Positions 8,121 to 49,035 of a stretch of DNA of 64,000 bases are shown here, piece by piece. How positions within the stretch are numbered: the first letter of the stretch is position 1; each line of letters opens with the position of its first letter. Where the stretch lies: NCBI GenBank assembly GCA_002753335.1, contig PEAD01000013.1:1-64000 (forward strand), read 5' to 3'. Origin of the DNA: Nitrospirae bacterium MYbin3. GTDB taxonomy: Bacteria > Nitrospirota > Thermodesulfovibrionia > Thermodesulfovibrionales > Dissulfurispiraceae. Below the pieces are notes generated by a model. It was not told where the DNA came from and did no database searches. It saw nothing but the letters and a program-made list of their open reading frames with translations. The translations under genes and the position numbers were made by a program.

Positions 8121-8945
8121 GTGAAACCTGAATATCTGTTTTTCTGGATTGCGGTGGGAATGTATGGTATAAGCGCCTGCAGTTATATCTTCGGCATCAT
8201 AGGGAAAAATGACAAACTTTTTGTCTTTGGTTTGTATAGCGCTTTAGCCGGATTTGTTCCTCATCTTTTTTCTATAGCCAACCGTTGGATGGAGACCGGC
8301 ATAAGTCCTTTTATTATGATTTCTGAATCAATTAGTTTTGGAATTTTTGTTTCAATTCTTATATTTCTTATTTTCCAATTTACGGTTAAAAAGGTAAGGC
8401 CTTTGGGCGTTGTTGTTATGCCTGTTGCGTTTGTTCTTATGGGATGGGGCGGGACGCTTATTAAAGGGGCTGCTACTCAGATAGCACCTGCATTGCAGAG
8501 TGGCTGGATTTGGGTTCATATCATTGGGGCGGCGACCGGTTTTGGTGCAATACTTGTATCAGCAGGAATGGGAATGATGTATCTTTTAAAAGAGAAATAT
8601 TCGGGCGGTATATACGAAAAGTTGCCTGAGTTGCAGGTCTTGGACAACCTCGGGTATCGTTTTGTTGCAGGCGGCTTTATCATGTATGGACTTATGATAA
8701 TATCCGGCTGTTTCTGGGCTAATCAGGTTAAAGGCAGCTACTGGAACTGGGACCCTGTAGAGGTGTGGTCACTTATATCATGGCTCACATATGGGATATA
8801 TCTGCATCTTAGAATAACCTTTGGATGGCGGGGCAGAAAATTAGCATGGTATGCATTGATTGCCCTTGCAGCTATGATAATAAGTTATTGGGGAATTCCT
8901 TTTGCTGTTGAAACATTTCACAGCGGTTTTAGAATAGAGCATTGA
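8121..8945 (+). CDS. ccsA: System II cytochrome c synthase CcsA/ResC family (divergent WWD domain)
   Basis: Multiple TM helices; LQSGWIWVH, WANQVKGSYWNWDPVE, YLHLR and a C-terminal H; GAGG RBS before GTG. Confidence 0.9.
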   Translation: MKPEYLFFWIAVGMYGISACSYIFGIIGKNDKLFVFGLYSALAGFVPHLFSIANRWMETGISPFIMISESISFGIFVSILIFLIFQFTVKKVRPLGVVVMPVAFVLMGWGGTLIKGAATQIAPALQSGWIWVHIIGAATGFGAILVSAGMGMMYLLKEKYSGGIYEKLPELQVLDNLGYRFVAGGFIMYGLMIISGCFWANQVKGSYWNWDPVEVWSLISWLTYGIYLHLRITFGWRGRKLAWYALIALAAMIISYWGIPFAVETFHSGFRIEH

Positions 8946-8961
8946 TTTTTCAGGAGGTAAG

Positions 8962-9462
8962 ATGTCGATACTTAAATATTTATGCTTGTTAATGATTGCC
9001 TTATTTATGATAGCAGCATGCACCAAAGACAAGAACGATAAGCAGGACGCTCCGAAATCCATACACAGTAATGTGGCCGAAACTTCAACCCCCGGCATTT
9101 CTGCTGCGATAAAAAATCAGAAGTGGCCTAATAGCCAATCTACAACAATAGGAACTGTTTTTGATTCGTACAAGCATTTAACGAAAAAGGAGTGGAGAGA
9201 ATCCTCGTTGAAAAGCGGGCACTACACTATTGATTTCAGCGGATGGTTTGAAAAAAATACATTGAACGACAAAGATATTCAGGATGGAGTCATAGACAGA
9301 GGAGTTGGCGTGACGTTTGTGATAGAACCGAATGGGGCTTGGTATGTATTAATGGTGTCAAAGCTTGAGGTTAAGTCTGACGGCAAGCTGTATAGATATG
9401 AACAAAAAGACTCTACTGCGATTCTTGATAAGATTTATGCCAATAAAAAAATTAGCTTTTAA
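8962..9462 (+). CDS. Hypothetical lipoprotein
   Basis: Signal peptide with IAAC lipobox; AGGAGG RBS. Confidence 0.7.
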   Translation: MSILKYLCLLMIALFMIAACTKDKNDKQDAPKSIHSNVAETSTPGISAAIKNQKWPNSQSTTIGTVFDSYKHLTKKEWRESSLKSGHYTIDFSGWFEKNTLNDKDIQDGVIDRGVGVTFVIEPNGAWYVLMVSKLEVKSDGKLYRYEQKDSTAILDKIYANKKISF

Positions 9463-9532
9463 ACACTTTACTGAGCGCTAGGCTATTAATATTGACAGCA
9501 ATGCGCTGACAGGCTAAGGCCGATTATTAATT

Positions 9533-10885
9533 ATGAAACTCTGCATTATCTTCCCTCCTTTGCCTTTTGGCTGGACTCCTGTGGCTCCGCCGAGCCTCGA
9601 ATATATTGCCGCGCTTACGCGACGTGCTGATCCCGATATAGAAATAGAGTTAATCAGCGCCAGCGCCGATCCTAATGCTGTTGATAGCTTGGATTGTGAC
9701 CTTGCCGCTATAAGTATTCTTACTCCGACTGCCGTAGGCGGCTATAAGATAGCAGAAAAGCTCAGGGCACGGGGAATTAAAGTTGTGTTTGGCAATATGC
9801 ATGCCTCTGCCATGCCTGAGGAGGCCAAGTCGCATGGAGATGCTGTTGTGATTGGCGAGGCTGAATCGGTCTGGCCTGAAGTACTCCGTGATTTTAGGAA
9901 TGGTCAGCTGAAACCTTTTTATCGCGGTGAACAGATTGTTCTTGATGAACTTCCTACACCTCTTTATGGTCTTCTTAAAGGCAAACGTAAGCATCAATTC
10001 AGAATTGTAAATACTTCACGCGGCTGTCCTTATAACTGTACCTTCTGCTCTGTTAAGCCTTTTTATGGAGCAAGGATTCGCTTCCGTCCTATTGAGCATG
10101 TTGTGCGTGATGTTGCGGCAATTCCCGAGAAGATGTATATAAACGGCGACGAGAATATCTGGTGGACAGGAAAGGCTGAACGCGCAATAGACCTTTTTAC
10201 CGAACTCAAGGGCAGCGGAAAAAGATGGATGGGCTTTGGTAGTCTTGGGCCGGTGCTTTCTCCTGTTGGCCCTCGAATGTTGAAGGCTGCGAGGGAGTGC
10301 GGACTGCTTTCTCTTTGGGTTGGATGGGAGTCGATTTCGGATGAAGGCTTAAGATCTTTTGCTGCAGACGGCAAGATAGGTGTTGACCGTGAGAGAGCGG
10401 TAAAGACCCTCAGGGACCATGGCATTGATGTATCTCTGTTCTATATGGTAGGCAGCCGGCATGATTCGCTCGATGACTTTAAGCGTTCAATAGAGATTGC
10501 AGAAAGGCTTGGTGTGAGCATGCATCCTTCGCTTGTTGTTCCTTATCCGGGCACCAAGCTGCGTGAGCAGTACGAGCCGTATATTTATAAGGATTTGGGC
10601 TGGGAGTATTATAACGGCGCATATGCTTTGTTTGAACATCCGGACTTGGCAATGGCGCCCGAAATCCGCGAAGAGCTTTTTTTCGAAACTTCACTTGAAC
10701 TGCTAAGTCTTGGCAGGGTTCTGCGGCATATGAAAAATGTTCCTATGCAGGGCTTTCCTCACGCTCATATTCTTTCGCTTATGTCGCAGATACCGGTAAG
10801 ACATGGCATGAAGATAGCATATGAAAAGTGGAAGGCAGAAAAAGACTTAGTGTCAAAAAAGAGAGCTGGAGTTACTGCATCATAA
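9533..10885 (+). CDS. Cobalamin-dependent radical SAM enzyme
   Basis: N-terminal B12-binding domain (VVFGNMHAS..PEE, VVIGEAE), SRGCPYNCTFC cluster motif, PYPGT. Confidence 0.9.
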   Translation: MKLCIIFPPLPFGWTPVAPPSLEYIAALTRRADPDIEIELISASADPNAVDSLDCDLAAISILTPTAVGGYKIAEKLRARGIKVVFGNMHASAMPEEAKSHGDAVVIGEAESVWPEVLRDFRNGQLKPFYRGEQIVLDELPTPLYGLLKGKRKHQFRIVNTSRGCPYNCTFCSVKPFYGARIRFRPIEHVVRDVAAIPEKMYINGDENIWWTGKAERAIDLFTELKGSGKRWMGFGSLGPVLSPVGPRMLKAARECGLLSLWVGWESISDEGLRSFAADGKIGVDRERAVKTLRDHGIDVSLFYMVGSRHDSLDDFKRSIEIAERLGVSMHPSLVVPYPGTKLREQYEPYIYKDLGWEYYNGAYALFEHPDLAMAPEIREELFFETSLELLSLGRVLRHMKNVPMQGFPHAHILSLMSQIPVRHGMKIAYEKWKAEKDLVSKKRAGVTAS

Positions 10886-11046
10886 GCAGCAGCCGTAAAT
10901 GCTATGTCTAATCAATTGCCTTTAATTTAGGCAGTCCTGCCTGTTTTTTGTGCATTATGACAAGGCGATATAAAAGTCCAGAAATGTTTTGGAATATAAC
11001 ATGTTAAAATTAAAGCATTTCTAAAAAACGGTTGTTAAAATATTTA

Positions 11047-11063
11047 TGGGCATATTTAATGCA
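11047..11063 (+). promoter_or_regulatory. Putative sigma54 (-24/-12) promoter of the LuxE-like gene
   Basis: TGGGCATATTTAATGCA: GG (11049-50) - 10 bp - GC (11061-62), about 63 bp before ATG; inverted repeats upstream at 10916-10934 and 10980-11022. Confidence 0.55.
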
Positions 11064-11125
11064 AGCTTTTCTGACCGGTAACATAGAAACAAGCTAAGCA
11101 TTAAATATTAAGGAGGCCATACCAT

Positions 11126-12634
11126 ATGTCAAAACTGCCCTTTGCTCCGATGAGCCCATCTGAAGCCGACAAAGAACGCCAGTGTTTAACAGAAGATGTT
11201 CTTAAGTTTATAGAGGCAGGGGTTGACTCTGATATTTCTGATTCTGTGTTCAAAGACTACTCGCTAAGGATGTTTGCCTTTCAGTATCAGGTAAATGCCA
11301 TCTTTCGTGAATTTTGTGATGCAAAAAATGTTAAGCCTGGAGACATAGACCGTTGGGAAGATATCCCGATGGTTTACAATGATGTCTTCAAGACTCACCT
11401 TGTTGCCTCTTTTCCGCTCGAGAAATCTGTGATGGCCTGCCTGACCGGTGGAACAACCAGTCTTACACAGAGGGGACGCATATTCAGGGATGAGGATGGC
11501 AAGCGTTTGGTATTTTCGGCTAATAAAATGATGACAGGGTCGTATCTGTTCCCTGACTTCAAAGATGGCAAGCGCTGCCGCATTCTTATTCTTGCACCGA
11601 GCCCAGAGATGGCACCATCAATGGGCATGGCTATTGGCATGGACCAGACGCGTCAGGCATTTGGAACTTCAGACAGTAAATTTCTTCTCGGCAAGTCAGG
11701 AATACATATCAATGATCTGCTAAAGGCATTGCGTGAATCAGAGGCGAGCGGTGTTCCGATTGCACTGATAGGCGCTACCTCTGCGTTTATTTATTTCTTT
11801 CAGGCCTGCCGCCGCAAGAAGATGAAGTTTTGTTTGCCTTTGGGAAGCAGAATTTGCGATGGTGGAGGCTACCGCAATAGGTTCGGAGTTTTTACACGGG
11901 ATGACTATTACAGTATGGTGCAGGAAATTTTCAGTATTTCCGATACTCACTGTGTCAACGTGCTTGGTGAAGCAGAAACTGCGACGAATCTTTTTGACGA
12001 TTCACTTAGACGCTATGTCAAAGGCCAGCCTAAGCGTCAACGTACAAGGCCTGTACCGCCGTGGTCGCGTGTGTTAGCTATGAGCATTGATGATCTTAAG
12101 CCTCTGCCTGACGGAGAGGTTGGGCTTCTTGCCCATTGGGACTTGGCCAACGTGCCCACTGTTCTGGCTGTCATTACCGATAACCTCGGCTATACTACCG
12201 ACAACGGCCGCGGCTGCGAAATGGTGGGCCGTGCAAAAATAGAAAACGGAAAGGTTTCACCGTTGCCTGATGAAAATGCAGGAAGCCCGATGGGCGACTC
12301 GGCAGTGTTTCGTATGCTTGAGAGATATGTGAACTTTTCTATCGAGCTGAAGATGGCGATGGCAAAAGACCCGAAGGCGCTGCCTAGTGTGCGCGAAGAG
12401 ATCGAAGCTCGGCCGGGCTCTGTGGCATCCTGTCCGCAGGTGGTTGATGAGATACTCGTTGGGCAGGCAGATGCAGAGGCGGCTGAGTTGAGGGACCAAT
12501 CATTAAATACATTCAAGGACCAGACAGAAAGACCGCTTGATTGGTACAAGAGTGAAGCTGACAAACAGGTTTTGGCTGACCATCCGGCAGGACTCAAGTC
12601 AGAAAATCAAGGCAAGAAGAGTGGTAAAAATTAA
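11126..12634 (+). CDS. LuxE-like acyl-protein synthetase (ANL superfamily) with C-terminal extension
   Basis: FAFQY..N..FREFC, WEDIP...FK, TGGTTS P-loop-like motif, DGGGY, G.AE, PPWSRV, DGEVGLLAHWDLAN, ITDNLG, VGRA. Confidence 0.8.
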   Translation: MSKLPFAPMSPSEADKERQCLTEDVLKFIEAGVDSDISDSVFKDYSLRMFAFQYQVNAIFREFCDAKNVKPGDIDRWEDIPMVYNDVFKTHLVASFPLEKSVMACLTGGTTSLTQRGRIFRDEDGKRLVFSANKMMTGSYLFPDFKDGKRCRILILAPSPEMAPSMGMAIGMDQTRQAFGTSDSKFLLGKSGIHINDLLKALRESEASGVPIALIGATSAFIYFFQACRRKKMKFCLPLGSRICDGGGYRNRFGVFTRDDYYSMVQEIFSISDTHCVNVLGEAETATNLFDDSLRRYVKGQPKRQRTRPVPPWSRVLAMSIDDLKPLPDGEVGLLAHWDLANVPTVLAVITDNLGYTTDNGRGCEMVGRAKIENGKVSPLPDENAGSPMGDSAVFRMLERYVNFSIELKMAMAKDPKALPSVREEIEARPGSVASCPQVVDEILVGQADAEAAELRDQSLNTFKDQTERPLDWYKSEADKQVLADHPAGLKSENQGKKSGKN

Positions 12635-12697
12635 AAATAGAGGTATGAAGTGATATATACTATATTGAAATTGTTGCATGCAGGTTTTTGACTTGTT

Positions 12698-13036
12698 ATG
12701 AAAAAGGCGCTGACTATTTTTATAGGGTTTGTTCATGATTTTGCAGCTGGATGTTGGGCAGCAACGGTATTAGGAGTTTACTGGCTGAGCTCGCAGACCT
12801 TTTCTGCTGAAGTCAACAGTGTTATATTCGGTTTGAAAAAACAACTTTTCTGGACAGGGATCATATGTGTGGTTGCTGTGTTTGCAACAGGTGCCGGAAG
12901 ATCTTTCACTTATGTTGACAATGTTTATGGCCCTGATTCAGAAAAAATGAGAAAAAAAATGCTACTTATTAAGCATGTATTTTTGCTCCTTGTATTCGGA
13001 ATCGGTATTTGGTGGCAATATTCTATGGTTTTTTAG
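12698..13036 (+). CDS. Small three-TM membrane protein
   Basis: Three hydrophobic helices with intramembrane His (VHDFAAG, IKHVF). Confidence 0.7.
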   Translation: MKKALTIFIGFVHDFAAGCWAATVLGVYWLSSQTFSAEVNSVIFGLKKQLFWTGIICVVAVFATGAGRSFTYVDNVYGPDSEKMRKKMLLIKHVFLLLVFGIGIWWQYSMVF

Positions 13037-13113
13037 CAGGTGTCGGTTCTTATTTAGAGTCTGTTCTAAAAAATTACTTGCTCATTGGTACTAAAATTGC
13101 TTAAAATAAACGG

Positions 13114-14586
13114 ATGAATTTCTCGAAAAAGATAAAAAAGGTTCTTCTTATCACGCCCCCATACCATTCCGGCGTTGTAGAGTCAGCAGGAGTCTGGCTT
13201 AATGTTGGGTTTGTTTATATCGCAGGAAGCCTCAGGGCTGCGGGATATGACCCAATTTATTATGATGCTATGAGCCATTGGGACACTCTAGAAGTTATCG
13301 GAAAGAGGATAGAGACAGAAAAGCCTGACGTTGTTGCAACAACAGCTTTTACCGCAGGTATTGTTGATGCCTTGAAGGTTCTTAAGCTTGCCAAAGAGAT
13401 TAATTCCTCGATAGTGACGGTAATCGGAAATGTTCATCCGACCTTCTGCTATGAGGAAATATTCAAAGACCATTATGCATATGTTGATTTCATTGTTCGC
13501 GGCGAGGGTGAGGAAACCCTTGTTGATTTGCTGAACACTATTAATGCCGGTGGACATATATCGAATGTCCAGAGCATAGTGTATAACGACGGCGGAAGCA
13601 CGGTAGCTACACCATCCCGCGGCTATATTAAAGATCTTGATACACTTCCTCTTGCTTGGGACCTTGTTGAATGGCCTATTTACACTTACAAGACTATGGA
13701 AGATTCACGCCTTGCTATCGTTAGCTCTTCACGCGGCTGCAGCCAGCAGTGCAGCTTCTGTTCACAGCAGCTTTTCTGGAAGAGGAAATGGAGAGGCAGG
13801 TCGCCCGAGAATTTTGTTGGAGAGCTTGAGTTTTTGAGGGACAAGTATGGCGTAAATGTTGTTATGGTTTCTGATGAAACTCCAACACTCGACAGGCAGC
13901 GTTGGGAGCGGATACTTGATATGCTCATAGAGCGTCAGGTGGGCACAAAGATTCTTATGGAGACTCGTGTGGATGATATCCTGAGGGATGAGGATATTAT
14001 GTGGAAGTACCAGAAGGCCAAGATCGACCATGTTTATCTTGGTGTTGAGGCTACGACCCAAGAGACACTCGATATTTTTAAAAAGGACATCAAGGTTGAG
14101 CAGTCAAAGAGGGCGCTTGATCTGATCAATGAATATAACATCGTTTCCGAAACATCATTCGTTCTTGGCATGCCGGATGACACTATAGAAAAGATACGCG
14201 AAACAGTCAATCTTGCCAGGTATTATAATCCTGATCTTGCTTTCTTCCTCGCAATTGCCCCATGGCCATATTCTGAGATTTATCCGATGCTCAAGCCGTA
14301 TATCGAGGTGTGGGATTACAGCAAGTACAATCTTGTTGAGCCTGTGGTTAAGCCTAAAGCGATGACCCTTGATGAGGTGAGAAACGAGCTTGGTTTAGCA
14401 TCGAAGAATTTTTATATGGATAAGATGATGAATCTTGAACGTCTTTCTCCAGAGAAGCAGGAGTTTATGGTCAAGGTTACAAAGATTATATCAACTAATT
14501 CCTACCTTAAAGAGCATATGCAGGGCGATATGCCGGAGGAGATTAAGAAAATGCTGGATAAAATCTCCTTTAAATCAAAAAAATAG
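13114..14586 (+). CDS. Cobalamin-dependent radical SAM enzyme (BchE-like architecture)
   Basis: B12-binding domain (GNVHPTF, VRGEGEET), SRGCSQQCSFC, ETRVDD, LGVE, PWPYS. Confidence 0.9.
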   Translation: MNFSKKIKKVLLITPPYHSGVVESAGVWLNVGFVYIAGSLRAAGYDPIYYDAMSHWDTLEVIGKRIETEKPDVVATTAFTAGIVDALKVLKLAKEINSSIVTVIGNVHPTFCYEEIFKDHYAYVDFIVRGEGEETLVDLLNTINAGGHISNVQSIVYNDGGSTVATPSRGYIKDLDTLPLAWDLVEWPIYTYKTMEDSRLAIVSSSRGCSQQCSFCSQQLFWKRKWRGRSPENFVGELEFLRDKYGVNVVMVSDETPTLDRQRWERILDMLIERQVGTKILMETRVDDILRDEDIMWKYQKAKIDHVYLGVEATTQETLDIFKKDIKVEQSKRALDLINEYNIVSETSFVLGMPDDTIEKIRETVNLARYYNPDLAFFLAIAPWPYSEIYPMLKPYIEVWDYSKYNLVEPVVKPKAMTLDEVRNELGLASKNFYMDKMMNLERLSPEKQEFMVKVTKIISTNSYLKEHMQGDMPEEIKKMLDKISFKSKK

Positions 14587-14606
14587 TCGCATACTCTGGT
14601 TTGGCG

Positions 14607-15170
14607 ATGGACTATAAAACCGAATTAATCGGTATTATTAAAGAACGCTCATACCAGTGCAGCGATGAGCCGATTTATAAACTTGCTTCTGGCGGTGTGA
14701 GCAAGTTTTATTTCAACATGAAGAAAACTACCATGTCGCCTGACGGTATGTTTATTATCGGCAAGCTTATTTTCGAGAAGATCAAAGAACTTGGGTTGTC
14801 GCCAGACGGAATCGGAGGACTTACTTTGGGCGCAGACCCTATAGCGTATGCCGTTGCAGGGCATTCATATCAGATGAAAGAGCCTATCAAGGCCTTTGTC
14901 ATAAGGAAAGAACCCAAGGGGCACGGCCTGATGCTTCCGGTCGAGGGCAATGTGGATCCGGGCAATCATGTGGTCATAATAGACGATGTTGTTACTACAG
15001 GCGGCTCTACCATAAAGGCTATTAAGGCTGCGCGTGATTTTGGTCTTATAGTTGATGCTGTTATTGTTCTTATTGACAGATGCGAACAAAACGGCAGGCA
15101 GAACATAGAAGCGTTGGATTGTGCTGTTCATGATATTCTTAACATAAGAGATTTCCTTCCGTCACATTAG
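14607..15170 (+). CDS. pyrE: Orotate phosphoribosyltransferase
   Basis: LASGGVSKFY, GGLTLGADP, IRKEPKGHG, PRPP motif VVIIDDVVTTGGS. Confidence 0.95.
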   Translation: MDYKTELIGIIKERSYQCSDEPIYKLASGGVSKFYFNMKKTTMSPDGMFIIGKLIFEKIKELGLSPDGIGGLTLGADPIAYAVAGHSYQMKEPIKAFVIRKEPKGHGLMLPVEGNVDPGNHVVIIDDVVTTGGSTIKAIKAARDFGLIVDAVIVLIDRCEQNGRQNIEALDCAVHDILNIRDFLPSH

Positions 15171-30354: not shown

Positions 30355-31599
30355 TTAAGATTTTTTTATCAGTTCAAAAAGCAATACGTCTATTTCATCA
30401 ATAAGCTCTTTGAATCTTCCACCGTAGCTTTTGGATGAAGAAAACAGGTTTGTGCGCAGGGCTTGAATTTCTGGGTCGCTGCATTTCTCATAGGTGATGT
30501 GGCCCTGCTGCATAGCCATACGTTCTTTAAAAAGCAGCGTCTTGGCGTCTTTGACAAAGGGTATAAGCAGGCTGCGCAGTCTTGCAATGCGTTCTACATA
30601 ATCCTGAGAAGCCGGCTTTTTGTTTTCTATCTCTGATGAAATCTCTTTCAGAAGCATGTATAGCGTGCAGTATTCCAAGCCGCGCACACCTCTTCGCCAC
30701 TGAAGGAGCATCGGGTTTCTCCAGAACCATAAGAAGTTTCTTTCGCCGAATTCGATCAGGTGTTTTGCTATTGCTTCGAGTCTTGAAATATCATGTTGTT
30801 TTAAACTGCTGATAGTCGATGAGGTTTCATCATTTTTATTGTTTGCAGAGGCTTCTGTTTCTGCAAGGTGCTGCCAAAGATTTTTTAATATGATGATACC
30901 GTTATCATCGCCGGGGCTGTCGAAATGCACAAGAGACAGAACAACTTTCCCTGAACCGTAAGCTCCTTCTACCACAGCAGGTTCTCCGGTAAGTCTTGCT
31001 GGATTAAGGTTGATGCCGTAAATCTCTTCGAATCGTTTCCATTCCTCGTTCGAAGCCACATCTCCAACATTGATGTCAGAGCTGAACGCATCAGGCATAG
31101 CTTCGCTGTAAGATGCAATTGTCTTGATCGAGTCATCAGCAGCAACGAACTGCGAAGGCCACCATGCATGAAATACTTTGTCTTTTAGCCCCTGCAAGAT
31201 TTTATGTTCGCTTGTGTTCAGTCGTATCTTGCCGCTGAAGCTGGGCACCCTGTCTTTGGTCGGCATTCTGTTTATGTTTGCGATACCGATGCCGTCAAGG
31301 GTTGCGAGACCTGCTCCTCCGCAAAAACCGAGGTAATTTCCGCCCGAGCTTACAAAGCTACGTATAGCTTCGGCCCCTTCATCGCCTAGGGTTTTAAGTT
31401 TGTTTGAAGCCCAGCCTCCCGGCACAAACAGCATCCGGTAATTTGAAAGCACGCCTTTTTTGATGTCATCAGATCTTATGATATTGAACGGGAGTGAGGC
31501 TCTTTTCAAGGCCCGGACAGACATAATTCCCCACAAGAACGACTCATCCCATAGCAGGGCTGCGGCTGTTTTATCGTGTTTGTTTGAGTTTTGCTTCAT
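30355..31599 (-). CDS. BPL-N / class I glutamine amidotransferase-like domain protein
   Basis: LFVPGGWA, GGNYLGFCGGAGLA nucleophile elbow, YGSGKVVLSLVHFD. Confidence 0.75.
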   Translation of the reverse strand: MKQNSNKHDKTAAALLWDESFLWGIMSVRALKRASLPFNIIRSDDIKKGVLSNYRMLFVPGGWASNKLKTLGDEGAEAIRSFVSSGGNYLGFCGGAGLATLDGIGIANINRMPTKDRVPSFSGKIRLNTSEHKILQGLKDKVFHAWWPSQFVAADDSIKTIASYSEAMPDAFSSDINVGDVASNEEWKRFEEIYGINLNPARLTGEPAVVEGAYGSGKVVLSLVHFDSPGDDNGIIILKNLWQHLAETEASANNKNDETSSTISSLKQHDISRLEAIAKHLIEFGERNFLWFWRNPMLLQWRRGVRGLEYCTLYMLLKEISSEIENKKPASQDYVERIARLRSLLIPFVKDAKTLLFKERMAMQQGHITYEKCSDPEIQALRTNLFSSSKSYGGRFKELIDEIDVLLFELIKKS

Positions 31600-33313
31600 A
31601 TCCGCGCGGGGTGATAATGCGATTGTTCCAGACAAGTGTTTTTGAATTCCCGATAATGACCGTGGTCTGCATGTCTATTTCGTGCGAAAGCATATCATTG
31701 AGGTTTGTAATCACAACACTCTCATCAGGCCTCATTGCGGCTTTTACTATTCCGACAGGAGTGCTTTTGCTTCTGTGCTTCATTATTATATCTCTTGCGA
31801 TGTTTATGTGCTCAACTCTTCCCCTGCTTTTGGGGTTGTAGAGGACTATTACGAAATCCGCGGCAGAAGCGGCTTCGAGCCGCTTCTCGATCAGCCCCCA
31901 ATTTGTCAGTCTGTCCGAGAGGCTTATGCAGGCGAAGTCATGCATTAAAGGCGCGCCAAGTCTTGATGCGCATGCGTTCAATGCCGAGATGCCCGGTATT
32001 ACTTCAACAGGAAGGTCGGCTGCATTTTTTTCTTTCAGTATTTCTAAAGTGAGTCCTGCCATCGCATAAATGCCGGGATCCCCTCCGCTTATCACCGCCA
32101 CCTTTTTGCCTTCCAAAGCAAGCTCTACCGCTTTTCGGCAGCGTTCGGTCTCTTTTGTCATTCCTGTAGAATGGATTTCTTTAGAGCGCAGCAGTTGAGG
32201 TATGAGTTCAAGGTAGGTGTCGTAGCCGACAATGGCATCGGCCTTTCGTATCGCGTTCTGCGCGTAAGGCGTTATGTGGTCTATGCCTCCGGGGCCTGTA
32301 CCAACTATAAATATTGCCCCGGGTTGAAATAGCCGCGCCTGTTTGCCGGACGACTCAGCTATTGCGATAGTAACATTTCCCATTTTTTGCTTTGTCACGA
32401 CAAGGCTGTCTGTGTCTGAAGCTAATAAAGCTGCCGGTTCAGAAACGGCGTATGCGCCGGTGGCTTTGAACACCGTCTTCGATTTTTTGATGCCCTTTAC
32501 GGAGTTTAGCTCTTCCGGCCGGAAGCTATGTACAGGCAGATTGTATTTTTTTGCAAAGGCGGCGAGTCCCGGTTCCTTGGCCTTAATATCGATAGTTGCT
32601 GCGGCGCTGACCGAGAGAAAAGAAAGGTTGTTTTCTTCGATCACTTCCCAAACCGCACTTTCAATCTCATCCATGGATGTCCCGCTGTTGCAGCCTATGC
32701 CTATTATCAAATTTTTGGGCCTGAGGTATAGCTGATCTTTTGCCCTGCAGCCGCAGTTGGCAATGGTTTTCTTGTTGGTAATGAGTAGGTCTGCAAAGCG
32801 AGGTTCTGCATTGAGAAAATCTTCCGGAAGCTTTATATCAATTTCGGAATATACACGAAGGGTTCCGCTGTTCAGGAACCTGACAGCTGTTTGAGGAAGT
32901 TTGTCCCACTCTTCAATTATCAGGTTGTTTTCGGCAGCCCACAAATCAAGGGAGGGGAGATTGTTTGCGTCAGATGCGGTTGTCACAACAGCTTCTGCAC
33001 AGAGATAACCCGCAAGCTCTTGGGTGAATCTATTTGCGCCGCCTAAATGGCCGCTTAAAAGGCTCACCACATGATTACCCGCCTCATCCAGCACGAGCAC
33101 AGCCGGGTCTGTTCGCTTGTCCTTGATAAAAGGCGCAATCGTTCTTACAACAATACCGCTTGCCATGATAAACACAAGTGCTTTTGTATTTTCCCATAGA
33201 TTTTCAACCGATTCAGCATTGAATTTAATAACCTCTGCATCAGGATAAAATCCTTTTATCTTTTGGGCGAGGGTGAGGCCTTTGTTGGTTATATAAAAAA
33301 TTGCTATGGACAT
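31571..33313 (-). CDS. cbiG-cbiH: Fused CbiG (cobalt-precorrin-5A hydrolase) and CbiH/CobJ (precorrin-3B C17-methyltransferase)
   Basis: ASGIVVR, DPAVLVLDE, SLLSGHLGGAN, IGIGC (CbiG); VGTGPG, SGGDPGIY, GAPLMHDF, YNPKS, TPRGY (CbiH). Confidence 0.93.
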   Translation of the reverse strand: MSIAIFYITNKGLTLAQKIKGFYPDAEVIKFNAESVENLWENTKALVFIMASGIVVRTIAPFIKDKRTDPAVLVLDEAGNHVVSLLSGHLGGANRFTQELAGYLCAEAVVTTASDANNLPSLDLWAAENNLIIEEWDKLPQTAVRFLNSGTLRVYSEIDIKLPEDFLNAEPRFADLLITNKKTIANCGCRAKDQLYLRPKNLIIGIGCNSGTSMDEIESAVWEVIEENNLSFLSVSAAATIDIKAKEPGLAAFAKKYNLPVHSFRPEELNSVKGIKKSKTVFKATGAYAVSEPAALLASDTDSLVVTKQKMGNVTIAIAESSGKQARLFQPGAIFIVGTGPGGIDHITPYAQNAIRKADAIVGYDTYLELIPQLLRSKEIHSTGMTKETERCRKAVELALEGKKVAVISGGDPGIYAMAGLTLEILKEKNAADLPVEVIPGISALNACASRLGAPLMHDFACISLSDRLTNWGLIEKRLEAASAADFVIVLYNPKSRGRVEHINIARDIIMKHRSKSTPVGIVKAAMRPDESVVITNLNDMLSHEIDMQTTVIIGNSKTLVWNNRIITPRGYEAKLKQTR

Positions 33314-40678: not shown

Positions 40679-41203
40679 ATGGTATTTTATCCGATGTCAG
40701 AAAAAACTAAAAAGAGCGATCTTATTATCGAAGAACTGAAAAAACGGCGGGCAAGAGAGAAGGTTGTTGATGTTGAAGAAGATACAGTAAAGATAGTGGT
40801 CTTTACTGTTATGAATGCCTATTATGCTTTTTATGGGGAAGATGTAAAAGAGGTGCTTATCCCTCCTGAAATATTCTATGTTCCGGGATCTCCTGAGCAT
40901 ATTTTGGGAGTTATAAATGTGAGGGGCGATATAGAGTCTGTGCTGAATATAAATGGTTTTCTCGGACTTCCATCTTCTGAGGTTACACAAAAAACGCGTA
41001 TAGTAATTGTTGAAAAAAACGGAGTGCGTTCCGGAATTCAGATAGACTCTGTGGAGGATGTGATAGATCTGCCTGAGTCTTCGATAAAACCGCCGTTGTG
41101 TACGCTGGATAAGAAGGCAAGGGAATTTGTGAGCGGCGAGATGGTTTATAATGGCCGGGATGTGGTTCTGCTTAATGTTGGATCTATATTCGGAATGTTT
41201 TAG
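40679..41203 (+). CDS. cheW: CheW adaptor
   Basis: VPGSPEHILGVINVRGDI, GIQIDSVEDV. Confidence 0.9.
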   Translation: MVFYPMSEKTKKSDLIIEELKKRRAREKVVDVEEDTVKIVVFTVMNAYYAFYGEDVKEVLIPPEIFYVPGSPEHILGVINVRGDIESVLNINGFLGLPSSEVTQKTRIVIVEKNGVRSGIQIDSVEDVIDLPESSIKPPLCTLDKKAREFVSGEMVYNGRDVVLLNVGSIFGMF

Positions 41204-41205
41204 CT

Positions 41206-41643
41206 ATGGGTAATTCAGATGAGCACGCACAGTTTATTGATTCTCTTGAGCTCCTTCTTTTTTGCATAGATGGGATTAAGTTAGGGATAGATGCAACTCA
41301 GATTGAGGCGTTGCTTAAAATTGAAGATGCCGAGGCCGAGGGCATTAAACTTATAAGGTTTGATGAAATCGCAGCTTTTGCAGGAAGAAAATTATCTTAT
41401 AAAGAGCCGCGACAGCTGCTTCTTAAGACCGGTGAAGCTATAATCACAGAACAGCCTTACGACATTATAAATATTGATATTGATGCAATCAGGCCGCTAC
41501 CCTCTCTTTTTTGCAGCTCTCAATCTGCTGGCGGCGCTGTATGGGGAGCCGCAATACTGGATGCTGAAATTATTATGCTTGTCGATTTTTCAGGAGTTGG
41601 GTCATCGTGTGCTTTAGCGCACACATCGCAAATAGTTAACTAA
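41206..41643 (+). CDS. Degenerate CheW-like protein
   Basis: LLLFCIDGIKLGID, IRPLP..VWGA..IIMLVD; position within the che cluster. Confidence 0.65.
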   Translation: MGNSDEHAQFIDSLELLLFCIDGIKLGIDATQIEALLKIEDAEAEGIKLIRFDEIAAFAGRKLSYKEPRQLLLKTGEAIITEQPYDIINIDIDAIRPLPSLFCSSQSAGGAVWGAAILDAEIIMLVDFSGVGSSCALAHTSQIVN

Positions 41644-41675
41644 ATGGCTACATTAAACATCACATAGGGGGCGAT

Positions 41676-42593
41676 ATGAGTCTTAATCTAAAATGGCTGT
41701 TCAATGCCGAAAAATTTAACGGTATTATCAAAAGAATCTCGGACATTATATCGGTAACAAGCCGTAGGGCTGATGAGATTACTCATTCTATAGAGGAGCA
41801 GTCCAATACCGCTTCGCAGCTTTCGGCGGCAGTGGCCGAGATTACCTCGACAATGGAAGAGCTGTCAGCCTCTTCTACGCAGATAGCCGAACATTCCAAG
41901 TCTGTGGTGGATATAGCTAATAAGACGTGGGAGGATACCAAGAAGGGCGCCAAGGCTGTTGAAGGCGTCATAATGAAAATGAGCGAGATAAGCAACGACA
42001 ACGAGGAAAATATAAAGGAGATTGTTGACCTTGGGAAAAAATCGAAGGAGATAACCAAGGTGATGGAGATAATTAATACAATTGCTGACCAGACAAAGCT
42101 TATAGCCTTTAATGCCGCGCTTGAGGCTGCCAGTGCAGGAGAGTCGGGCAAAAGGTTTGGGGTTGTGGCGGTAGAAATCAGAAGGCTGGCGGACAGCGTC
42201 ATGGATTCGACCGAAGAAATAGCAACCAAGGTGAATGAGATACAGGAGGCTATAAACCGTCTTGTTATGAATTCTGAGAAAGGATCTAAGGGGATACAGG
42301 ATGGAATGAGCATGTCGGCAGAGACCGCATCACTTCTGATCGATATAGTTGAAGCCGCACAGGAAACCACAACTTCGGCTAAGCAGATTTCGCTTTCAAC
42401 CCAGCAGCAAAAGACCGCGAGCAATCAGGTTGTGGTTGCGTTAAGGGAGATTGTGGCAGGCACCGGGCAGACATCTAATTCAACAAGCAGAATAATTGCT
42501 ATAAGCAGGGAGATGTCGATGCTGGCAGAGGAAATGAAACGGCTGCTTGATGATTCAGGACTCAATGAATCCGGCAGTTCAGACGCGTCCTAG
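41676..42593 (+). CDS. Soluble methyl-accepting chemotaxis protein (signalling domain only)
   Basis: IADQTKLIAFNAALEAASAGESGKRFGVVAVEIRRLA hairpin tip; no TM segment. Confidence 0.92.
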   Translation: MSLNLKWLFNAEKFNGIIKRISDIISVTSRRADEITHSIEEQSNTASQLSAAVAEITSTMEELSASSTQIAEHSKSVVDIANKTWEDTKKGAKAVEGVIMKMSEISNDNEENIKEIVDLGKKSKEITKVMEIINTIADQTKLIAFNAALEAASAGESGKRFGVVAVEIRRLADSVMDSTEEIATKVNEIQEAINRLVMNSEKGSKGIQDGMSMSAETASLLIDIVEAAQETTTSAKQISLSTQQQKTASNQVVVALREIVAGTGQTSNSTSRIIAISREMSMLAEEMKRLLDDSGLNESGSSDAS

Positions 42594-42599
42594 CGAAGA

Positions 42600-43631
42600 G
42601 TGGTTATGAGCAAAATAAAGGTTCTTGTTGTTGATGACAGCAAACTGGCGCGTGAGATGATATCTGCTGTGCTATCCACCGACAGCGATATAGAGGTGGT
42701 TGGAGAGGCCTGCGACGGAAGTGAAGCGGTTAAAAAGGTCAGGGAGCTTAGTCCTGATATAGTTACTATGGATATAGAGATGCCGGTTATGAACGGTCTT
42801 GATGCCATAGAAAATATTATGGCCGATGCCGCTGTGCCTATACTTGTTGTTACAACCAGGGGCGACGCACAGACCGCATACGCCGCTATATCAAAAGGCG
42901 CTCTTGATATGATACAGAAGCCGGACCTGAATCCTGACAGTGCAAATGAGTTTATAGGAAAGATTAAGCTTCTTTCGAAAATAAAAGTTATTACGCATAT
43001 AGGCGGAAAGCTGCACAGGGCGAATGCTTCTACGGACAGGGGGGAGCAAAAATTAAATTTCTCGGGCAGTGACAGGGTAATAGCCATAGCTTCTTCAACA
43101 GGCGGGCCGGAGGCCCTTTCGGTTGTTCTGTCTGCACTGCCTGCTAGCCTGCCATGTCCTATTACGGTGGCGCAGCACATTTCTGATGGATTTGTTGCCG
43201 GCATGGTGGAGTGGCTGAAGAAGATAATAAGGCTTAAAATAAAAGTTGCTGAGGAAGGCGATATTTTGGAGGCCGGAACTGTATATGTATCGCCGTCCGA
43301 GAAGCATATGGAAATAAGCAGCGCAAAAAGGGTTTCTTTACGGAACAGGAGCCCCAAAGACATATACAGACCTTCCTGTGATACATTGTTGTCGTCGGCT
43401 GCGCGTGTATATGGCGGCAAGAGCATAGGCGTCATACTTACAGGGATGGGCAATGACGGCCCGTTAGGAATGAAGATGATAAAAGATTCCGGCGGGGCGA
43501 CCATAGCGCAGGATGCTAAGACGTCGGTGGTTTATGGGATGAACAAAGTCGCTATCGACAGCGGATGTATAGACAGTGTGCTCCCGATTGATAGTATATC
43601 GGCCGGAATTATTAATCTGCTAAGTAAATAA
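42600..43631 (+). CDS. cheB: CheB methylesterase response regulator
   Basis: REC plus ASSTGGP, AQHI, LTGMGNDG. Confidence 0.95.
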   Translation: MVMSKIKVLVVDDSKLAREMISAVLSTDSDIEVVGEACDGSEAVKKVRELSPDIVTMDIEMPVMNGLDAIENIMADAAVPILVVTTRGDAQTAYAAISKGALDMIQKPDLNPDSANEFIGKIKLLSKIKVITHIGGKLHRANASTDRGEQKLNFSGSDRVIAIASSTGGPEALSVVLSALPASLPCPITVAQHISDGFVAGMVEWLKKIIRLKIKVAEEGDILEAGTVYVSPSEKHMEISSAKRVSLRNRSPKDIYRPSCDTLLSSAARVYGGKSIGVILTGMGNDGPLGMKMIKDSGGATIAQDAKTSVVYGMNKVAIDSGCIDSVLPIDSISAGIINLLSK

Positions 43632-43633
43632 CA

Positions 43634-45103
43634 ATGGACATTGCCCCTTTTAAAGAAATTTTAAAAGAGAGGTGCGGACTTCATTTTGAAGAGGTAAGGA
43701 CCGCAAAGCTCGAGAGCGCAGTCTATGCCAGAATGTCTGACAGCGGTATTATGTCTACTGATGACTATCTGCAGAAAATATTGCACGATGCGGACGAGTT
43801 CAATAAACTCGTCAATATGGTCACAATTAACGAAACATATTTTCTAAGGGAGCGGGCTCATCTAAAACTGCTTGTTGACCGGTTGATTCCTGAAATGCTT
43901 AATGCCGGGCAAGATCAATCTATCAGGATACTTATCGCGGGCTGCTCTACAGGCGAGGAGCCTTATTCTATAATGATTGAGCTGTTCGAAAAATATAAAA
44001 ATTCGGCCTCTAAACTTGTATCTGTGATAGGCTTTGATATAGACACCGATGCTGTAGGAAAGGCGGTAGAAGGTGTTTACGGCCCTTCATCTTTCAGGAA
44101 TATGCATGACAGTGTCAGGGATAAATATTTTGATCATGCAGGGGAAAACACTTTCAGGATTAAAGATTTTATAAAAGAATCGGTGCGTTTGCGTGTGGCG
44201 AATCTGCATGAAGAAGAATTCCCGGATGAGTTTAGCTCTGTTGACATTATTTTTTACAGGAATGTATCGATTTATTTCGACACGGATACACAGAAGAAGA
44301 TATTTACCAATCTGGCCCGCTTGCTAAAAAAAGGAGGCTATCTTTTTGTAAGCGCCACAGAGACGTTTGCCCATAATATCGGGGTATTGAGCTTAGTGGA
44401 ACTTGATGGATCCTTCCTCTATCATAAAGGGGATATTATAGCTATTGAAGACAGAAGGAAGCGGTCCAGAACTATTTCTGAGCCTGCACCCTCTGCTGCT
44501 CCGGTAAAAAATAATTTTTCGAGCGGACAGCTTAGTGCTGCTCTGCATCAGTTTACCGAAAAATTTGGAACGGATAAGCGTGCATCTCATGACCTGTTTG
44601 ATAAGGCTTTATCATTTGCAAAAGACAAGCAGTACGAGAAAGCGGTTGCAGAACTGGACCGGCTGATAAGCCATGAGCCTTCTTTTGCAAAGGCGTATAT
44701 ACTCAAGGCAGGCGTGCTGATAAACATGAAAAGGCTGGATGAGGCGTGCGATAGCTGTCTTAAATGCATTGATTTTGAAAAGTGGTGTCTTGAGGCCTAT
44801 CTGCTGCTGGGCTTTATAGCAAAGATAAAAAATGATAATGACACCGCGCTCAGGAGATTTAAAGATGCGCTGTATATCGAGTCTTCATGCTGGCTGGCCC
44901 ATTTTTATATGGCAGAGATTTACAACCTGATAGGAGAAAAAAACAGCTCCTGCCGTGAGTATGAAATAACAGAGAAGCTCCTTGAAAAAGGGAATACCGG
45001 CGATCACGGCATAAATTATTTTCCTATTTATTTTGACAGGGAGCAGATGACACATCTTTGCAGGCATAACATAACAAAACTAAAGGGGATTAAGGCGGCT
45101 TAA
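43634..45103 (+). CDS. cheR: CheR methyltransferase with TPR domain
   Basis: TINETYFLRE, AGCSTGEEPYS, IFYRNVSIYF; C-terminal TPRs. Confidence 0.93.
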   Translation: MDIAPFKEILKERCGLHFEEVRTAKLESAVYARMSDSGIMSTDDYLQKILHDADEFNKLVNMVTINETYFLRERAHLKLLVDRLIPEMLNAGQDQSIRILIAGCSTGEEPYSIMIELFEKYKNSASKLVSVIGFDIDTDAVGKAVEGVYGPSSFRNMHDSVRDKYFDHAGENTFRIKDFIKESVRLRVANLHEEEFPDEFSSVDIIFYRNVSIYFDTDTQKKIFTNLARLLKKGGYLFVSATETFAHNIGVLSLVELDGSFLYHKGDIIAIEDRRKRSRTISEPAPSAAPVKNNFSSGQLSAALHQFTEKFGTDKRASHDLFDKALSFAKDKQYEKAVAELDRLISHEPSFAKAYILKAGVLINMKRLDEACDSCLKCIDFEKWCLEAYLLLGFIAKIKNDNDTALRRFKDALYIESSCWLAHFYMAEIYNLIGEKNSSCREYEITEKLLEKGNTGDHGINYFPIYFDREQMTHLCRHNITKLKGIKAA

Positions 45104-47316
45104 TGGCTATTGATCTTAAAAAATTCATTGGAAGGTTCATAGAAGAGGCCAAGGAGCATCTTGATAAGCTTGGTCAGGGAATCATGGATCTTGAAAAGTC
45201 TCCTGAAGACAGCGAAAATATCAACTCTATATTCCGCTCTGCACATACCATAAAAGGTTCGTCGCGAATGATGAATCTTACCCCGATAACCGAGGTGGCG
45301 CATAAGCTCGAAGATGTTCTAGGCAGTCTTCGTGACAAGAAGATAAAGCCTTCGGCTCGGCTGTCAGATTTGCTCCTCAGCGCGGTTGATGCTATTTCGG
45401 CTATGGTCGAGATGGTGGCTTCGGGCAAGGAGATTGCCGCAGACAACACAGCGCTTTGCGAAAGCCTTGTTCGGGCTGCAGAGAAAGGCTCTTCAGATAT
45501 GCCGGAAGAGCTGACAGCTCAGCCCAAAGACAGCTTGGTTGAAGAAAAGAAACCGACGGCCGCACCTGCTGTCGAAGACCATTCAAATATTGCGGCCCCT
45601 GATGCCAGGCAAAAAGTGCAGGAGACCTTCAAGATAAAGGCTGATAAACTGGATGATCTTATCAAGCTGATGGGTGAGATAGTGTCAGGCCAGAGCAGGC
45701 TTAGGCAGAGGCTCGGCGATGCAAAGGAAATAGAATCTATGGCCGCAAAGCAGTTGGCCGGAATAGAGGCTAAGGCGGCGCAGGGCGGTCTTGCAGAAGT
45801 TGCTGCTTCCTCTAAGTCTTTATTTGCAAGCATTAAAAAGCTGGTTGCGGATCTAAAAGATGATGTGAATATTTACGAACTGCTTACTGATGATCTTCAG
45901 GGCAAGACAGTGATGATGAGGATGGTACCGCTTTCAACCGCATTGGATTCTTTTCGCAGGATGGTGCGTGACATGTCGCGCTCTATAGGAAAAGAAGTAG
46001 AGATTATCATAGAAGGCGACAATATAGAACTCGACAAAAAGATTGTCGAGAAGATAGGCGATCCTTTGGTGCACATGATCAGAAACTCGATAGACCACGG
46101 GATAGAAAAGCCTGAGGAGCGTATCAACAAAGGCAAGCCCCTAAAAGGGAATATAAGACTTTCTGCGGTTTATGATGCCGGAAGCGTGCTTATAGAGATA
46201 GCGGATGACGGAGCAGGGCTGCCTTTGGAGAAGATAAAAGAAAAGGCGGTCAGAAAAAAAATATTCGCAGAAGAGGAAGCCAACGCGCTGAGAGAGTCCG
46301 AACTTATAGACCTTATTTTCCATCCTGGATTCAGCACCAGCGAGATAATTACGGATATATCAGGCAGAGGCGTCGGCATGGATGTGGTGAGAAAATATAT
46401 TATCGAAGATATGAAGGGGTCTATAAGGGTCGAAACTCAAAAGGATAAAGGCACGAATTTTTTTATAAGACTGCCGCTTACGCTGGCGGTTATGAGGCTG
46501 CTTCTCATATCATCATCCGGCTATATTTTTGCGGTTTCTGCTCATTATGTAAAAGAGGTTATCAGGGCGTCTGAGGACGAATTTATGACCGTAGTGGATA
46601 AAAAAGCGCTCAAACTGAGGAACGAATTCATTCCTGTTGTCAATATGGCGGAGCTCTTAAAGCTTCCAGCGGACAGGAAAAAACATGCAAGAAATAATGC
46701 GGCAGGAATGCTTATCTTGCTGACTCAGGTGGGCGATGAAAAGTTGGGTCTGATAATAGATGATCTGCTTGATGAAGAAGATATGGTGATAAAATCTCTT
46801 CCGGGGCATTTGAAGGGTATTCGCTTTGTCTCTGGCTTTACAGTTACCGGCAAAAACGAGATTATCAATGTGCTGCATATCCCGGCTGTTATAGAGGCTG
46901 CTTCTGAGGTGAAAGAGCGCAGGACCGAAATAAAGACCGCCGCGGCTGCCGGAGCCAGCATTCTTGTTATAGACGATTCCCTGAACACAAGAGAAATAGA
47001 AAAAAGCATACTTGAGTCGTATGGCTACTCGGTAACCTTGGCCGAAGACGGTCTTGACGGTTTCGAAAAGGCGATGAGAGGTAAGTTTGACGCTGTTATA
47101 ACCGACGTAGAGATGCCGCGTCTTGATGGTTTTTCTTTGACAGAAAAATTGAGAATGGAAGAAGCCTATAAACATACGCCTATAATCATAGTAACCTCGA
47201 GGCAGAAGGAAGAGGATAAGAGGCGCGGTATTTCGGTAGGGGCTGATGCGTATATAATAAAGGGTTCGTTTGAGCGTTCTAATCTGATAGAAACGATTCA
47301 GAATCTTATAGGATAA
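45103..47316 (+). CDS. cheA: Hybrid CheA-REC kinase
   Basis: FRSAHTIKG Hpt, HMIRNSIDHG, SGRGVGMDVV, CheW domain, C-terminal REC. Confidence 0.95.
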   Translation: MAIDLKKFIGRFIEEAKEHLDKLGQGIMDLEKSPEDSENINSIFRSAHTIKGSSRMMNLTPITEVAHKLEDVLGSLRDKKIKPSARLSDLLLSAVDAISAMVEMVASGKEIAADNTALCESLVRAAEKGSSDMPEELTAQPKDSLVEEKKPTAAPAVEDHSNIAAPDARQKVQETFKIKADKLDDLIKLMGEIVSGQSRLRQRLGDAKEIESMAAKQLAGIEAKAAQGGLAEVAASSKSLFASIKKLVADLKDDVNIYELLTDDLQGKTVMMRMVPLSTALDSFRRMVRDMSRSIGKEVEIIIEGDNIELDKKIVEKIGDPLVHMIRNSIDHGIEKPEERINKGKPLKGNIRLSAVYDAGSVLIEIADDGAGLPLEKIKEKAVRKKIFAEEEANALRESELIDLIFHPGFSTSEIITDISGRGVGMDVVRKYIIEDMKGSIRVETQKDKGTNFFIRLPLTLAVMRLLLISSSGYIFAVSAHYVKEVIRASEDEFMTVVDKKALKLRNEFIPVVNMAELLKLPADRKKHARNNAAGMLILLTQVGDEKLGLIIDDLLDEEDMVIKSLPGHLKGIRFVSGFTVTGKNEIINVLHIPAVIEAASEVKERRTEIKTAAAAGASILVIDDSLNTREIEKSILESYGYSVTLAEDGLDGFEKAMRGKFDAVITDVEMPRLDGFSLTEKLRMEEAYKHTPIIIVTSRQKEEDKRRGISVGADAYIIKGSFERSNLIETIQNLIG

Positions 47317-47329
47317 GGCGGGGGAGAGA

Positions 47330-49012: not shown

Positions 49013-49035
49013 AATTTTTATGCAGGAGGTTATTC

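Follow-up and report, generated by a model that had tools for sequence, protein, structure and literature searches.

Introduction

Cytochrome c maturation is, to our knowledge, taken to attach unmodified heme b. System II lyases also exist for unusual binding motifs, and in Wolinella succinogenes we take these to be NrfI for CXXCK and CcsA1 for CX15CH. That lyases of this organism handle both motifs is stated in the available part of PMC10663686. In Geobacter, Table S5 of a 2009 paper (PMC2700814) lists a "cytochrome c biogenesis gene cluster 3" in G. sulfurreducens (GSU2887-GSU2893) and G. metallireducens (Gmet_0592-0598), with no function given for its enzymes. Here we describe six co-oriented genes of Nitrospirae bacterium MYbin3 at positions 8121-14586 of the window, a stretch of 64,000 nucleotides (nt) from contig PEAD01000013.1 of assembly GCA_002753335.1. 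They encode a variant of the heme lyase subunit CcsA, a lipoprotein, two B12-binding radical S-adenosylmethionine (SAM) enzymes (RS1 and RS2), a LuxE-like ligase and a three-helix membrane protein (TM3), and very probably form an accessory module for cytochrome maturation.

The sections of PMC2700814 at hand suggest that each lyase pair serves the cytochromes nearby. In the accessible text of bioRxiv 10.1101/2022.05.22.492868, the function of GSU2887 is called unclear and an omcN deletion is cited without a phenotype, and Gmet_0571, of the same published cluster, is described as needed for optimal electron transfer to Methanosarcina in the part of PMC10989804 that was available. An earlier note on the MYbin3 DNA, made from the letters alone, had pointed to such neighbourhoods near multiheme cytochrome genes of Geobacter-like bacteria, and Table S5 has one in print. 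The six plus-strand open reading frames (ORFs) and the families that the note had named were also borne out by ORF and profile checks.

Results

The variant CcsA tracks RS2 in two phyla

CcsA (8121-8945, + strand; 274 amino acids [aa]) is a variant System II heme lyase subunit matched by PF01578 (E 3e-32). Its histidines H133, H229 and H267 and the tryptophans of the WWD domain are intact, and the three histidines are kept in 67/67, 66/67 and 66/67 sequences, respectively. Their spacing is 66/30/38, compared with 67/30/39 in the Helicobacter hepaticus enzyme (H761/W828/H858/H897; available part of PMC11322641). The canonical D-x-K-E pocket is not kept: the motif reads WNWDPVEVW, with valine for lysine, and TIGR03144 gives 175 bits against a cut-off of 187.6. 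Each of the 82 distinct CcsA proteins encoded in the loci described below has V, I, L or M at the position of H. hepaticus K842, and two of the other MYbin3 CcsA proteins read lysine there (the third was not read out). In the accessible part of PMC10663686, D840-E843 is modelled as a pocket that takes the first cysteine (C1), next to vinyl 2. A role of the lost lysine in binding a heme propionate is not supported, as the papers put this lysine in the cysteine pocket.

The variant was followed through 301 Nitrospirota genomes with a strict DNA pattern, WxWD[PT][VIM]ExW, alongside RS2 (E <=1e-110), TM3 (E <1e-10) and the LuxE-like ligase (at least 40% identity). RS2 is present in 52 of these genomes. 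The motif occurs in 46, of which 44 are RS2-positive, and in 2 of the 249 RS2-negative genomes, both of them fragmented assemblies that carry TM3. Eight RS2 genomes lack the strict pattern; in five of them, a variant CcsA that escaped the pattern is encoded next to RS2. Among 151 Desulfobacterota genomes, a looser motif pattern and RS2 each match 11, with nine in common and two motif-only matches unchecked. RS2 and the motif lie on separate contigs in 12 genomes and 1.38 Mb apart in another (G242), so operon linkage alone is an insufficient explanation of the tracking.

The motif CX4CH does not share this distribution. Its profile TIGR01904 matches 94 of the 301 genomes, 35 with RS2 and the motif, 7 with RS2 only, none with the motif only and 52 with neither. 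Genomes with a distant RS2 have the variant CcsA in five of five cases. The variant CcsA tracks RS2, not CX4CH, in two phyla. A lyase specific for CX4CH was rejected on the 52 genomes with neither RS2 nor the motif and on the finding of a hydrophobic-pocket CcsA in 0/10 CX4CH-rich RS2-negative genomes. A further CcsA-like type, with the motif W-F-F-x-A-Y-G-x-Y-W-x-W-T, is present in 4/5 distant-RS2 genomes (G022, G031, G138 and G242) and in 0/10 RS2-negative ones; in G242 its gene adjoins TM3 and RS1 homologues.

Conservation and composition of the module

The LuxE-like protein as query retrieved 77 loci at 51-89% identity from Nitrospirota, Geobacter-group Desulfobacterota, Anaeromyxobacter, Coriobacteriia/Actinomycetota and Chloroflexota. 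RS1 is found in 59 of them, TM3 and CcsA in 55 each, RS2 in 48, a ResB-like gene in 25 and the lipoprotein in 23, with many loci ending at contig edges. Where the locus spans at least 19 kb, 39 of 41 hold at least one of CcsA, TM3, RS1 and RS2, so the co-occurrence is not chance; 25 of the 41 hold a multiheme gene. CcsA, RS1, the ligase, TM3 and RS2 stand together in 28 distinct loci of Nitrospirota, the Geobacter group, Chloroflexota and Coriobacteriia, usually near multiheme cytochrome genes, with median pairwise identities of 80% for LuxE, 77% for RS1, 74% for CcsA, 64% for RS2 and 47% for TM3. The gene order is variable and other genes are inserted, yet the set is retained. The homologues thus co-occur across phyla, as the earlier note had proposed to check, and the enzymes do not each fall into a characterised, unrelated pathway.

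The note's grouping of four enzymes as one set did not hold as an obligate one. Ten loci (L129-L137 and L140), mostly multiheme operons, have RS2 beside a ResB-like gene and ccsA, without LuxE or RS1. In the Nitrospirota sample, the LuxE-like gene is present in 23 genomes, all among the 52 with RS2; three weak matches (29-32%; G277, G281 and G283, all RS2-negative) were left out. RS1 is found in 35 of the 52 RS2 genomes versus 0/10 CX4CH-rich RS2-negative ones, and TM3 in 44 genomes, 42 of them with RS2, leaving out five matches weaker than 1e-10. Because RS1 and the LuxE-like gene are patchy among RS2 genomes and the ten loci lack both, the core consists of RS2 and a dedicated CcsBA, with TM3 close to core status and RS1 and the ligase as options.

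Gene fusions tie the components together: RS2 is joined to LuxE in P0128 (43% and 41% identity to the RS2 and LuxE-like proteins of the window), some RS1 paralogues carry a TM3-like tail (best E 3e-6), and RS2 is fused to an SRPBCC domain. P0126 links RS2 with a long barrel-like stretch and may be an artefact of gene calling.

Some features are restricted to groups of loci. The luxE-like gene is opposite to the radical SAM genes in 25/28 Geobacter-group loci (L066-L128) and co-oriented with them in 27/27 Nitrospirota loci; a phase-variable inversion was considered for this difference and rejected, with no flanking inverted repeats in five regions. Often the Geobacter-group loci also contain another variant ccsA (54-59% identity) and a gene for a membrane protein of 78 aa, in shifting order. 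An extended cassette (L034:4364-8481, L138 and L139) has two variant-motif radical SAM genes (NF045502), a 158-aa protein without an NCBIfam match and a stand-alone SRPBCC-like protein.

RS2 is a relative of BchE

RS2 (13114-14586, +; 490 aa), in the core of the module, has a B12-binding domain (PF02310) and a radical SAM domain (PF04055) with the CX3CX2C cysteines C209, C213 and C216 invariant in 38 sequences. It scores 384 bits on TIGR02026, the BchE model, below the cut-off of 481, and is 38-40% identical over ~430 aa to seven plasmid-borne proteins, six of them annotated as BchE; four of the seven were read in gene context. Three trees were built with an assumed root and without BchQ/BchR, GrsA/B and Gms, the next-best comparison sequences coming from a search of 1.84 billion proteins. 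RS2 forms a clade of its own (support 98/95), as does BchE (100/100), and the two group with four unnamed BchE-like proteins against the 10 next-best matches (100/100). In an approximately unbiased (AU) test, an RS2 and BchE clade without the P0143 group was not rejected (p 0.144), so a direct sister relation of RS2 and BchE would also fit. The unnamed proteins P0143, P0151, P0157 and P0159 (390-420 bits on TIGR02026) branch nearer BchE than RS2 does.

Seventy-two conserved positions are common to RS2 and BchE, 25 of which are rare among 23 other B12-dependent radical SAM proteins. They share an N-terminal YH-x-G-x-x-E-x-x-G-x-W loop and the motifs SQ-x-x-FW, TRV-x-DI and DYSKYN. Unlike BchE, the Mg-protoporphyrin IX monomethyl ester cyclase, RS2 occurs in a context of cytochrome maturation and not of photosynthesis, forms a separate clade, scores below the cut-off and is encoded in a genome without BchM (best TIGR02021 score 33.7 against a cut-off of 158.9; Mg-chelatase was not searched). 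To judge from its sequence, RS2 is not BchE; it is a separate clade with BchE as its closest characterised relative. The placement of the radical SAM enzymes against known clusters that the earlier note had called for thus put RS2 nearest BchE, in loci that hold cytochrome genes and not a chlorophyll pathway. The lipid-related models give 138 (HpnR), 102 (HpnJ) and 83 bits (ladderane), and both RS1 and RS2 fall far below every NCBIfam cut-off for HpnP/HpnR/HpnJ, ladderane, BzaD, QCMT and other named families of B12-dependent radical SAM enzymes.

The ligase, RS1, TM3 and the lipoprotein

The fourth gene (11126-12634, +; 502 aa) encodes a LuxE/PaaK-like adenylating (ANL) enzyme (PF04443, E 5e-19), with 65.5 bits on the LuxE model NF052244 against a cut-off of 550. 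Its sole clear sequence match in the PDB is LuxE (7XC6, E 5e-14), and its predicted model, with a predicted local distance difference test (pLDDT) score of 74, matches PaaK-type ANL enzymes (PDB 2Y4O, E 2e-8). Like LuxE and PaaK ligases, it has the ANL fold, ATP loop, aspartate, hinge arginine and a conserved C-terminal cysteine: none of 72 close homologues departs from the TGGTT loop (T107-T111), D352 or R369, and C436, on a flexible and poorly modelled C-terminal arm, is kept in 72/72 close and 5/11 distant ones. P0128 has a similar cysteine motif repeated five times. Unlike LuxE, the ligase has ~130 extra C-terminal residues, no LuxC partner in the window or in the LuxE-like loci, and a fusion to RS2 in P0128. 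A LuxCDE-type reductase was rejected on the missing LuxC partner. Tandem distant LuxE-like paralogues (34-44%) without the cysteine tail occur at L048:8662-11214 and L051:1571-4106.

RS1 (9533-10885, +; 450 aa) has the same two domains as RS2 (PF02310 and PF04055) and belongs to no named family, its best NCBIfam score being 77 bits against a cut-off of 251. TM3 (12698-13036, +; 112 aa) is predicted as a three-helix membrane protein (pLDDT 92.5) with H13, D14, G65, R68, K92 and H93 invariant in 35 sequences. Its match to PF05425 (CopD) is weak (24 bits, cut-off 32), the Atlas CopD cluster gives 0.77, and fold searches returned generic helical bundles only (Z <=9.1). On its invariant residues, TM3 is a candidate heme holder. 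The optional lipoprotein (8962-9462, +; 166 aa), with a lipobox Cys20 read by eye, has no family match and finds only unnamed clusters in the ESM Atlas.

No signal peptide was read in RS1, RS2 or the ligase, so they would work ahead of export. The 240-nt gap between RS1 and the luxE-like gene holds a terminator-like hairpin followed by a T-run (10928-10943, +; a consensus match only), which suggests two transcription units. A pyrE-like gene (14601-15170, +) begins 14 nt past the RS2 stop and is not a conserved neighbour elsewhere.

Partner and probable client genes in the MYbin3 genome

The genome measures 2.93 Mb, is 93.7% complete and has its nearest homologues in Nitrospirota. It holds three further CcsA-family genes, on contigs C65 (beside ResB), C64 (in a hem cluster) and C15. 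ResB has no match within the window, and PF05140 matches in the genome lie only on C65 and C37. The latter (C37:117296-118381) is a ResB-like protein of 361 aa, over the PF05140 cut-off (E 4e-6), with His84 and 63-67% identity to ResB-like proteins whose genes adjoin ccsA in other loci. On the same contig, C37:84310-92994 encodes three cytochromes, with 5, 20 and 10 hemes and with CX4CH motifs in two of them, as well as a lipoprotein of 469 aa; the cytochromes are of families found next to the cassette in other genomes, and so is the lipoprotein, at 39-45% identity. The window ccsA is thus no orphan, with a ResB-like partner and probable client cytochromes on C37. Between these giant cytochromes and the ResB-like gene lies an island of glycosyltransferase, tetratricopeptide repeat (TPR)-membrane and radical SAM genes (C37:93094-116449), and genes akin to it are inserted in many cassette loci.

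As the earlier note had it, neither LuxC nor ResB is encoded in the window; luxD and luxAB, which it had also listed as missing, were not searched by family. Genome-wide, the search for resB that it had proposed led to the partner on C37, and that for luxC to a single weak match to PF05893 (C1, E 2e-10) in an ORF of 474 aa, which we read as an ordinary aldehyde dehydrogenase.

A second multiheme operon (C59:17977-26839) lacks ccsA, whereas related operons in other genomes include ResB-like, ccsA and RS2 genes. It is like a porin-cytochrome conduit, with two NHL-like lipoproteins, PpiC-like and barrel-like proteins and 10-, 4- and 5-heme proteins, and lies 2 kb from an ahbD-like gene. The AhbD-like gene of the genome scores 446 bits against a cut-off of 500.

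One cytochrome family beside the cassette, to which C37:88899-91520 belongs, has a C-terminal tail (type 1) of the form CXXCH...HG...FIR...C-X(4-14)-C...Y..GG.Y, in which a histidine directly follows the second cysteine in 0/18 sequences. Its profile matches 5/5 close-clade RS2 genomes and 1/23 RS2-negative ones. A type-2 tail is present in 10/22 RS2-positive genomes, and in RS2-negative genomes it ends in adjacent Cys-His. A third, similar tail was seen by eye in 5/10 variant-ccsA loci of distant-clade genomes. The two-cysteine tail is a candidate site of heme attachment.

Other genes of the window

A CbiG-CobJ/CbiH fusion (31571-33313, -; TIGR01466 over cut-off) shows that the organism has genes for cobalamin synthesis, a possible source of B12 for RS1 and RS2. 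N-terminal sequences point to a complete chemotaxis-like operon at 40679-49825 (+). It is followed at 49833-54695 (+) by a series of small CxxCGM-type-motif proteins, four without an NCBIfam match, and by ABC transporter genes; we take the small proteins to be NosL-like. The region 55594-62874 (+) encodes an NrfA-like cytochrome (seven CXXCH, one CXXCK), a choice-of-anchor V protein of 163 aa that has a single CXXCH, and NapA-like, NapG-like and NapH-like proteins, of which the NapA-like one is unusually long (1111 aa) and scores below cut-off.

Discussion

That RS2 modifies heme, and that the variant CcsBA attaches the product at a non-canonical C-terminal two-cysteine site, is in our view an evenly balanced proposition. 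A modified heme is the simplest reading because the enzymes look cytoplasmic, the one link across the membrane carries heme, and RS2, which tracks that link, has a porphyrin-modifying enzyme as its closest characterised relative. The six genes would then supply the enzymatic half of a maturation line dedicated to large surface multiheme cytochromes: RS2 would alter heme b in the cytoplasm, and the ResB-like protein of C37 together with the variant CcsA would export and attach it. TM3 would use H13 and H93 to keep heme at the membrane, as its invariant His, Arg and Lys residues and the RS1-TM3 fusions suggest. RS2, by kinship, might perform a BchE-type radical oxidation at a propionate side chain and possibly close a fifth ring, leaving both vinyls free. 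In the fuller set found here, the ligase may activate a carboxylate as an acyl-AMP and park it on Cys436, and RS1 may add a second radical step such as methylation, both with presumed substrates. The variant CcsBA would finally join the product to the C-terminal Cys-X(4-14)-Cys of the client, here putatively that of C37:88899-91520. A more specific version is put forward tentatively: the BchE-sister enzyme may make an oxidised or five-ring (protochlorophyllide-like) iron porphyrin, optionally esterified or methylated, which the dedicated CcsBA would wire into the terminal site of giant surface cytochromes in metal-respiring bacteria of several phyla as a new c-type heme.

Several points weigh against heme tailoring. 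CcmF has valine at the place of the lost lysine and works with ordinary heme, and the change from lysine to valine, in a pocket modelled for the peptide cysteine, would suit an unusual peptide motif no less than an unusual heme. The pairwise identities of CcsA and RS2 are weakly correlated (Spearman 0.31). The genomes are related, so the counts carry no p-value, and many are incomplete. Unrelated B12-dependent radical SAM proteins score 280-322 bits on TIGR02026, 11 positions are conserved in both RS2 and BchE but differ between them, and a relative of BchE need not act on a porphyrin. BchE chemistry requires a protected carboxyl, according to the accessible part of PMC5972617; with no BchM in this genome and no LuxE-like ligase in 29/52 RS2 genomes, a carboxyl-protecting step is not universal. 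As for the tails, 15/18 of type 1 have no histidine at all after the cysteines, the type-1 profile matches 0/17 distant-clade RS2 genomes, type 2 is also found in 4/23 RS2-negative genomes, and the cysteines could simply form a disulfide. Tailoring by RS2 and attachment by the variant CcsBA are predicted from context and kinship, and differ in this from the gene identities, co-occurrence, fusions, CcsA motif change and tree position, which are observed. The earlier note's modified cofactor on specialised c-type cytochromes gained support in its context, through co-occurrence, CcsA-RS2 tracking and BchE kinship, and the modified heme itself stays a prediction.

The variant CcsBA might instead attach ordinary heme b to the long-spaced cysteine pair, with RS2, RS1 and the ligase serving the cytochromes in some other way; they might, for instance, modify the apoprotein or an export partner. 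The Wolinella lyase for CX15CH, presumably CcsA1, would be a precedent. This reading, which we consider rather unlikely, suits the changed residue within the modelled cysteine pocket, the three sequence types of non-canonical two-cysteine tails beside variant ccsA, and the dedicated lyases for odd motifs described in the available part of PMC10663686. It gives no reason for the tracking of this CcsA, even when unlinked, by a cytoplasmic BchE relative and a two-histidine membrane protein, and CX4CH motifs, as well as CXnCH tails in four RS2-negative genomes, do without the variant. Equally concerned with export or attachment by CcsBA is the improbable case of a non-heme or other-metal cofactor, such as a cobalt or nickel tetrapyrrole or an acylated small redox cofactor. 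The fusion of RS2 to a ligand-binding SRPBCC domain in a distant clade would fit it, as would nikR or cbiMQO-like genes in 11/77 loci by labels read from sequence, an upper bound since the "cbiO" cluster includes a MacB-type ABC ATPase. RS1 and RS2 need B12, however, which accounts for the cobalt supply just as well, and CcsA retains all its heme ligands.

The two remaining explanations move the chemistry away from tetrapyrroles. Acylation of a protein (a cytochrome, pseudopilin or lipoprotein) by the ligase, with the radical SAM enzymes tailoring the acyl chain, would account for the active ANL motifs and cysteine arm of all 72 close homologues and for a GspG-like gene in 11/77 loci; we hold it to be quite improbable, as the ligase is missing from 29 of the 52 RS2 genomes and the core pairing is that of RS2 with CcsBA. 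Synthesis of an unusual membrane lipid or tailoring of a surface glycan, near cytochromes through chance clustering of islands, is highly improbable. B12-dependent radical SAM enzymes do tailor hopanoids and other lipids, and TPR and glycosyltransferase-like genes are often inserted in the loci, but the lipid models (HpnR, HpnJ and ladderane) score far below the BchE model, no LuxC or acyl carrier protein partner is conserved, and the variant CcsA tracks RS2 at a distance. The unusual lipid that the earlier note had offered as a second product found no positive support.

Should heme tailoring by RS2 be confirmed, it would change the reading of giant surface cytochromes in Geobacter, Nitrospirota and Coriobacteriia, including their potentials, spectra and heterologous expression, and give a direct handle on these little-understood proteins. 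It would also provide a non-photosynthetic function next to BchE, with a bearing on the origin of chlorophyll synthesis. In the more specific version, the product would serve extracellular electron transfer as a tuned exit heme, and the chlorophyll ring-E reaction would have a living relative outside photosynthesis. The motif WDP[VILM]E is in any case a simple genomic marker.

No description of this gene combination was found in the literature searched, which left out most subscription papers and bioRxiv supplements. What is new is a dedicated System II maturation variant with an undescribed enzyme core, a pocket-residue marker, tracking of RS2 and, here, a split over two contigs. Geobacter cluster 3 lists ResB-like, ResC/CcsA, acyl-protein synthetase, conserved hypothetical and radical SAM genes between cytochromes of 23-27 hemes; only one radical SAM gene is listed in that stretch, and orthology to the window genes is presumed from labels and order. 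As with the Wolinella lyases, an extra CcsBA stands beside the housekeeping one and is tied to particular multiheme cytochromes, the histidines and the WWD domain are kept, and the clients have non-canonical cysteine spacing. The available part of PMC10663686 describes no accessory cytoplasmic enzymes for the Wolinella lyases, whereas the lyase described here tracks a B12-dependent radical SAM enzyme and a two-histidine membrane protein, carries a hydrophobic residue in place of the pocket lysine, and consists of two separate proteins, CcsA and a ResB-like partner of 361 aa.

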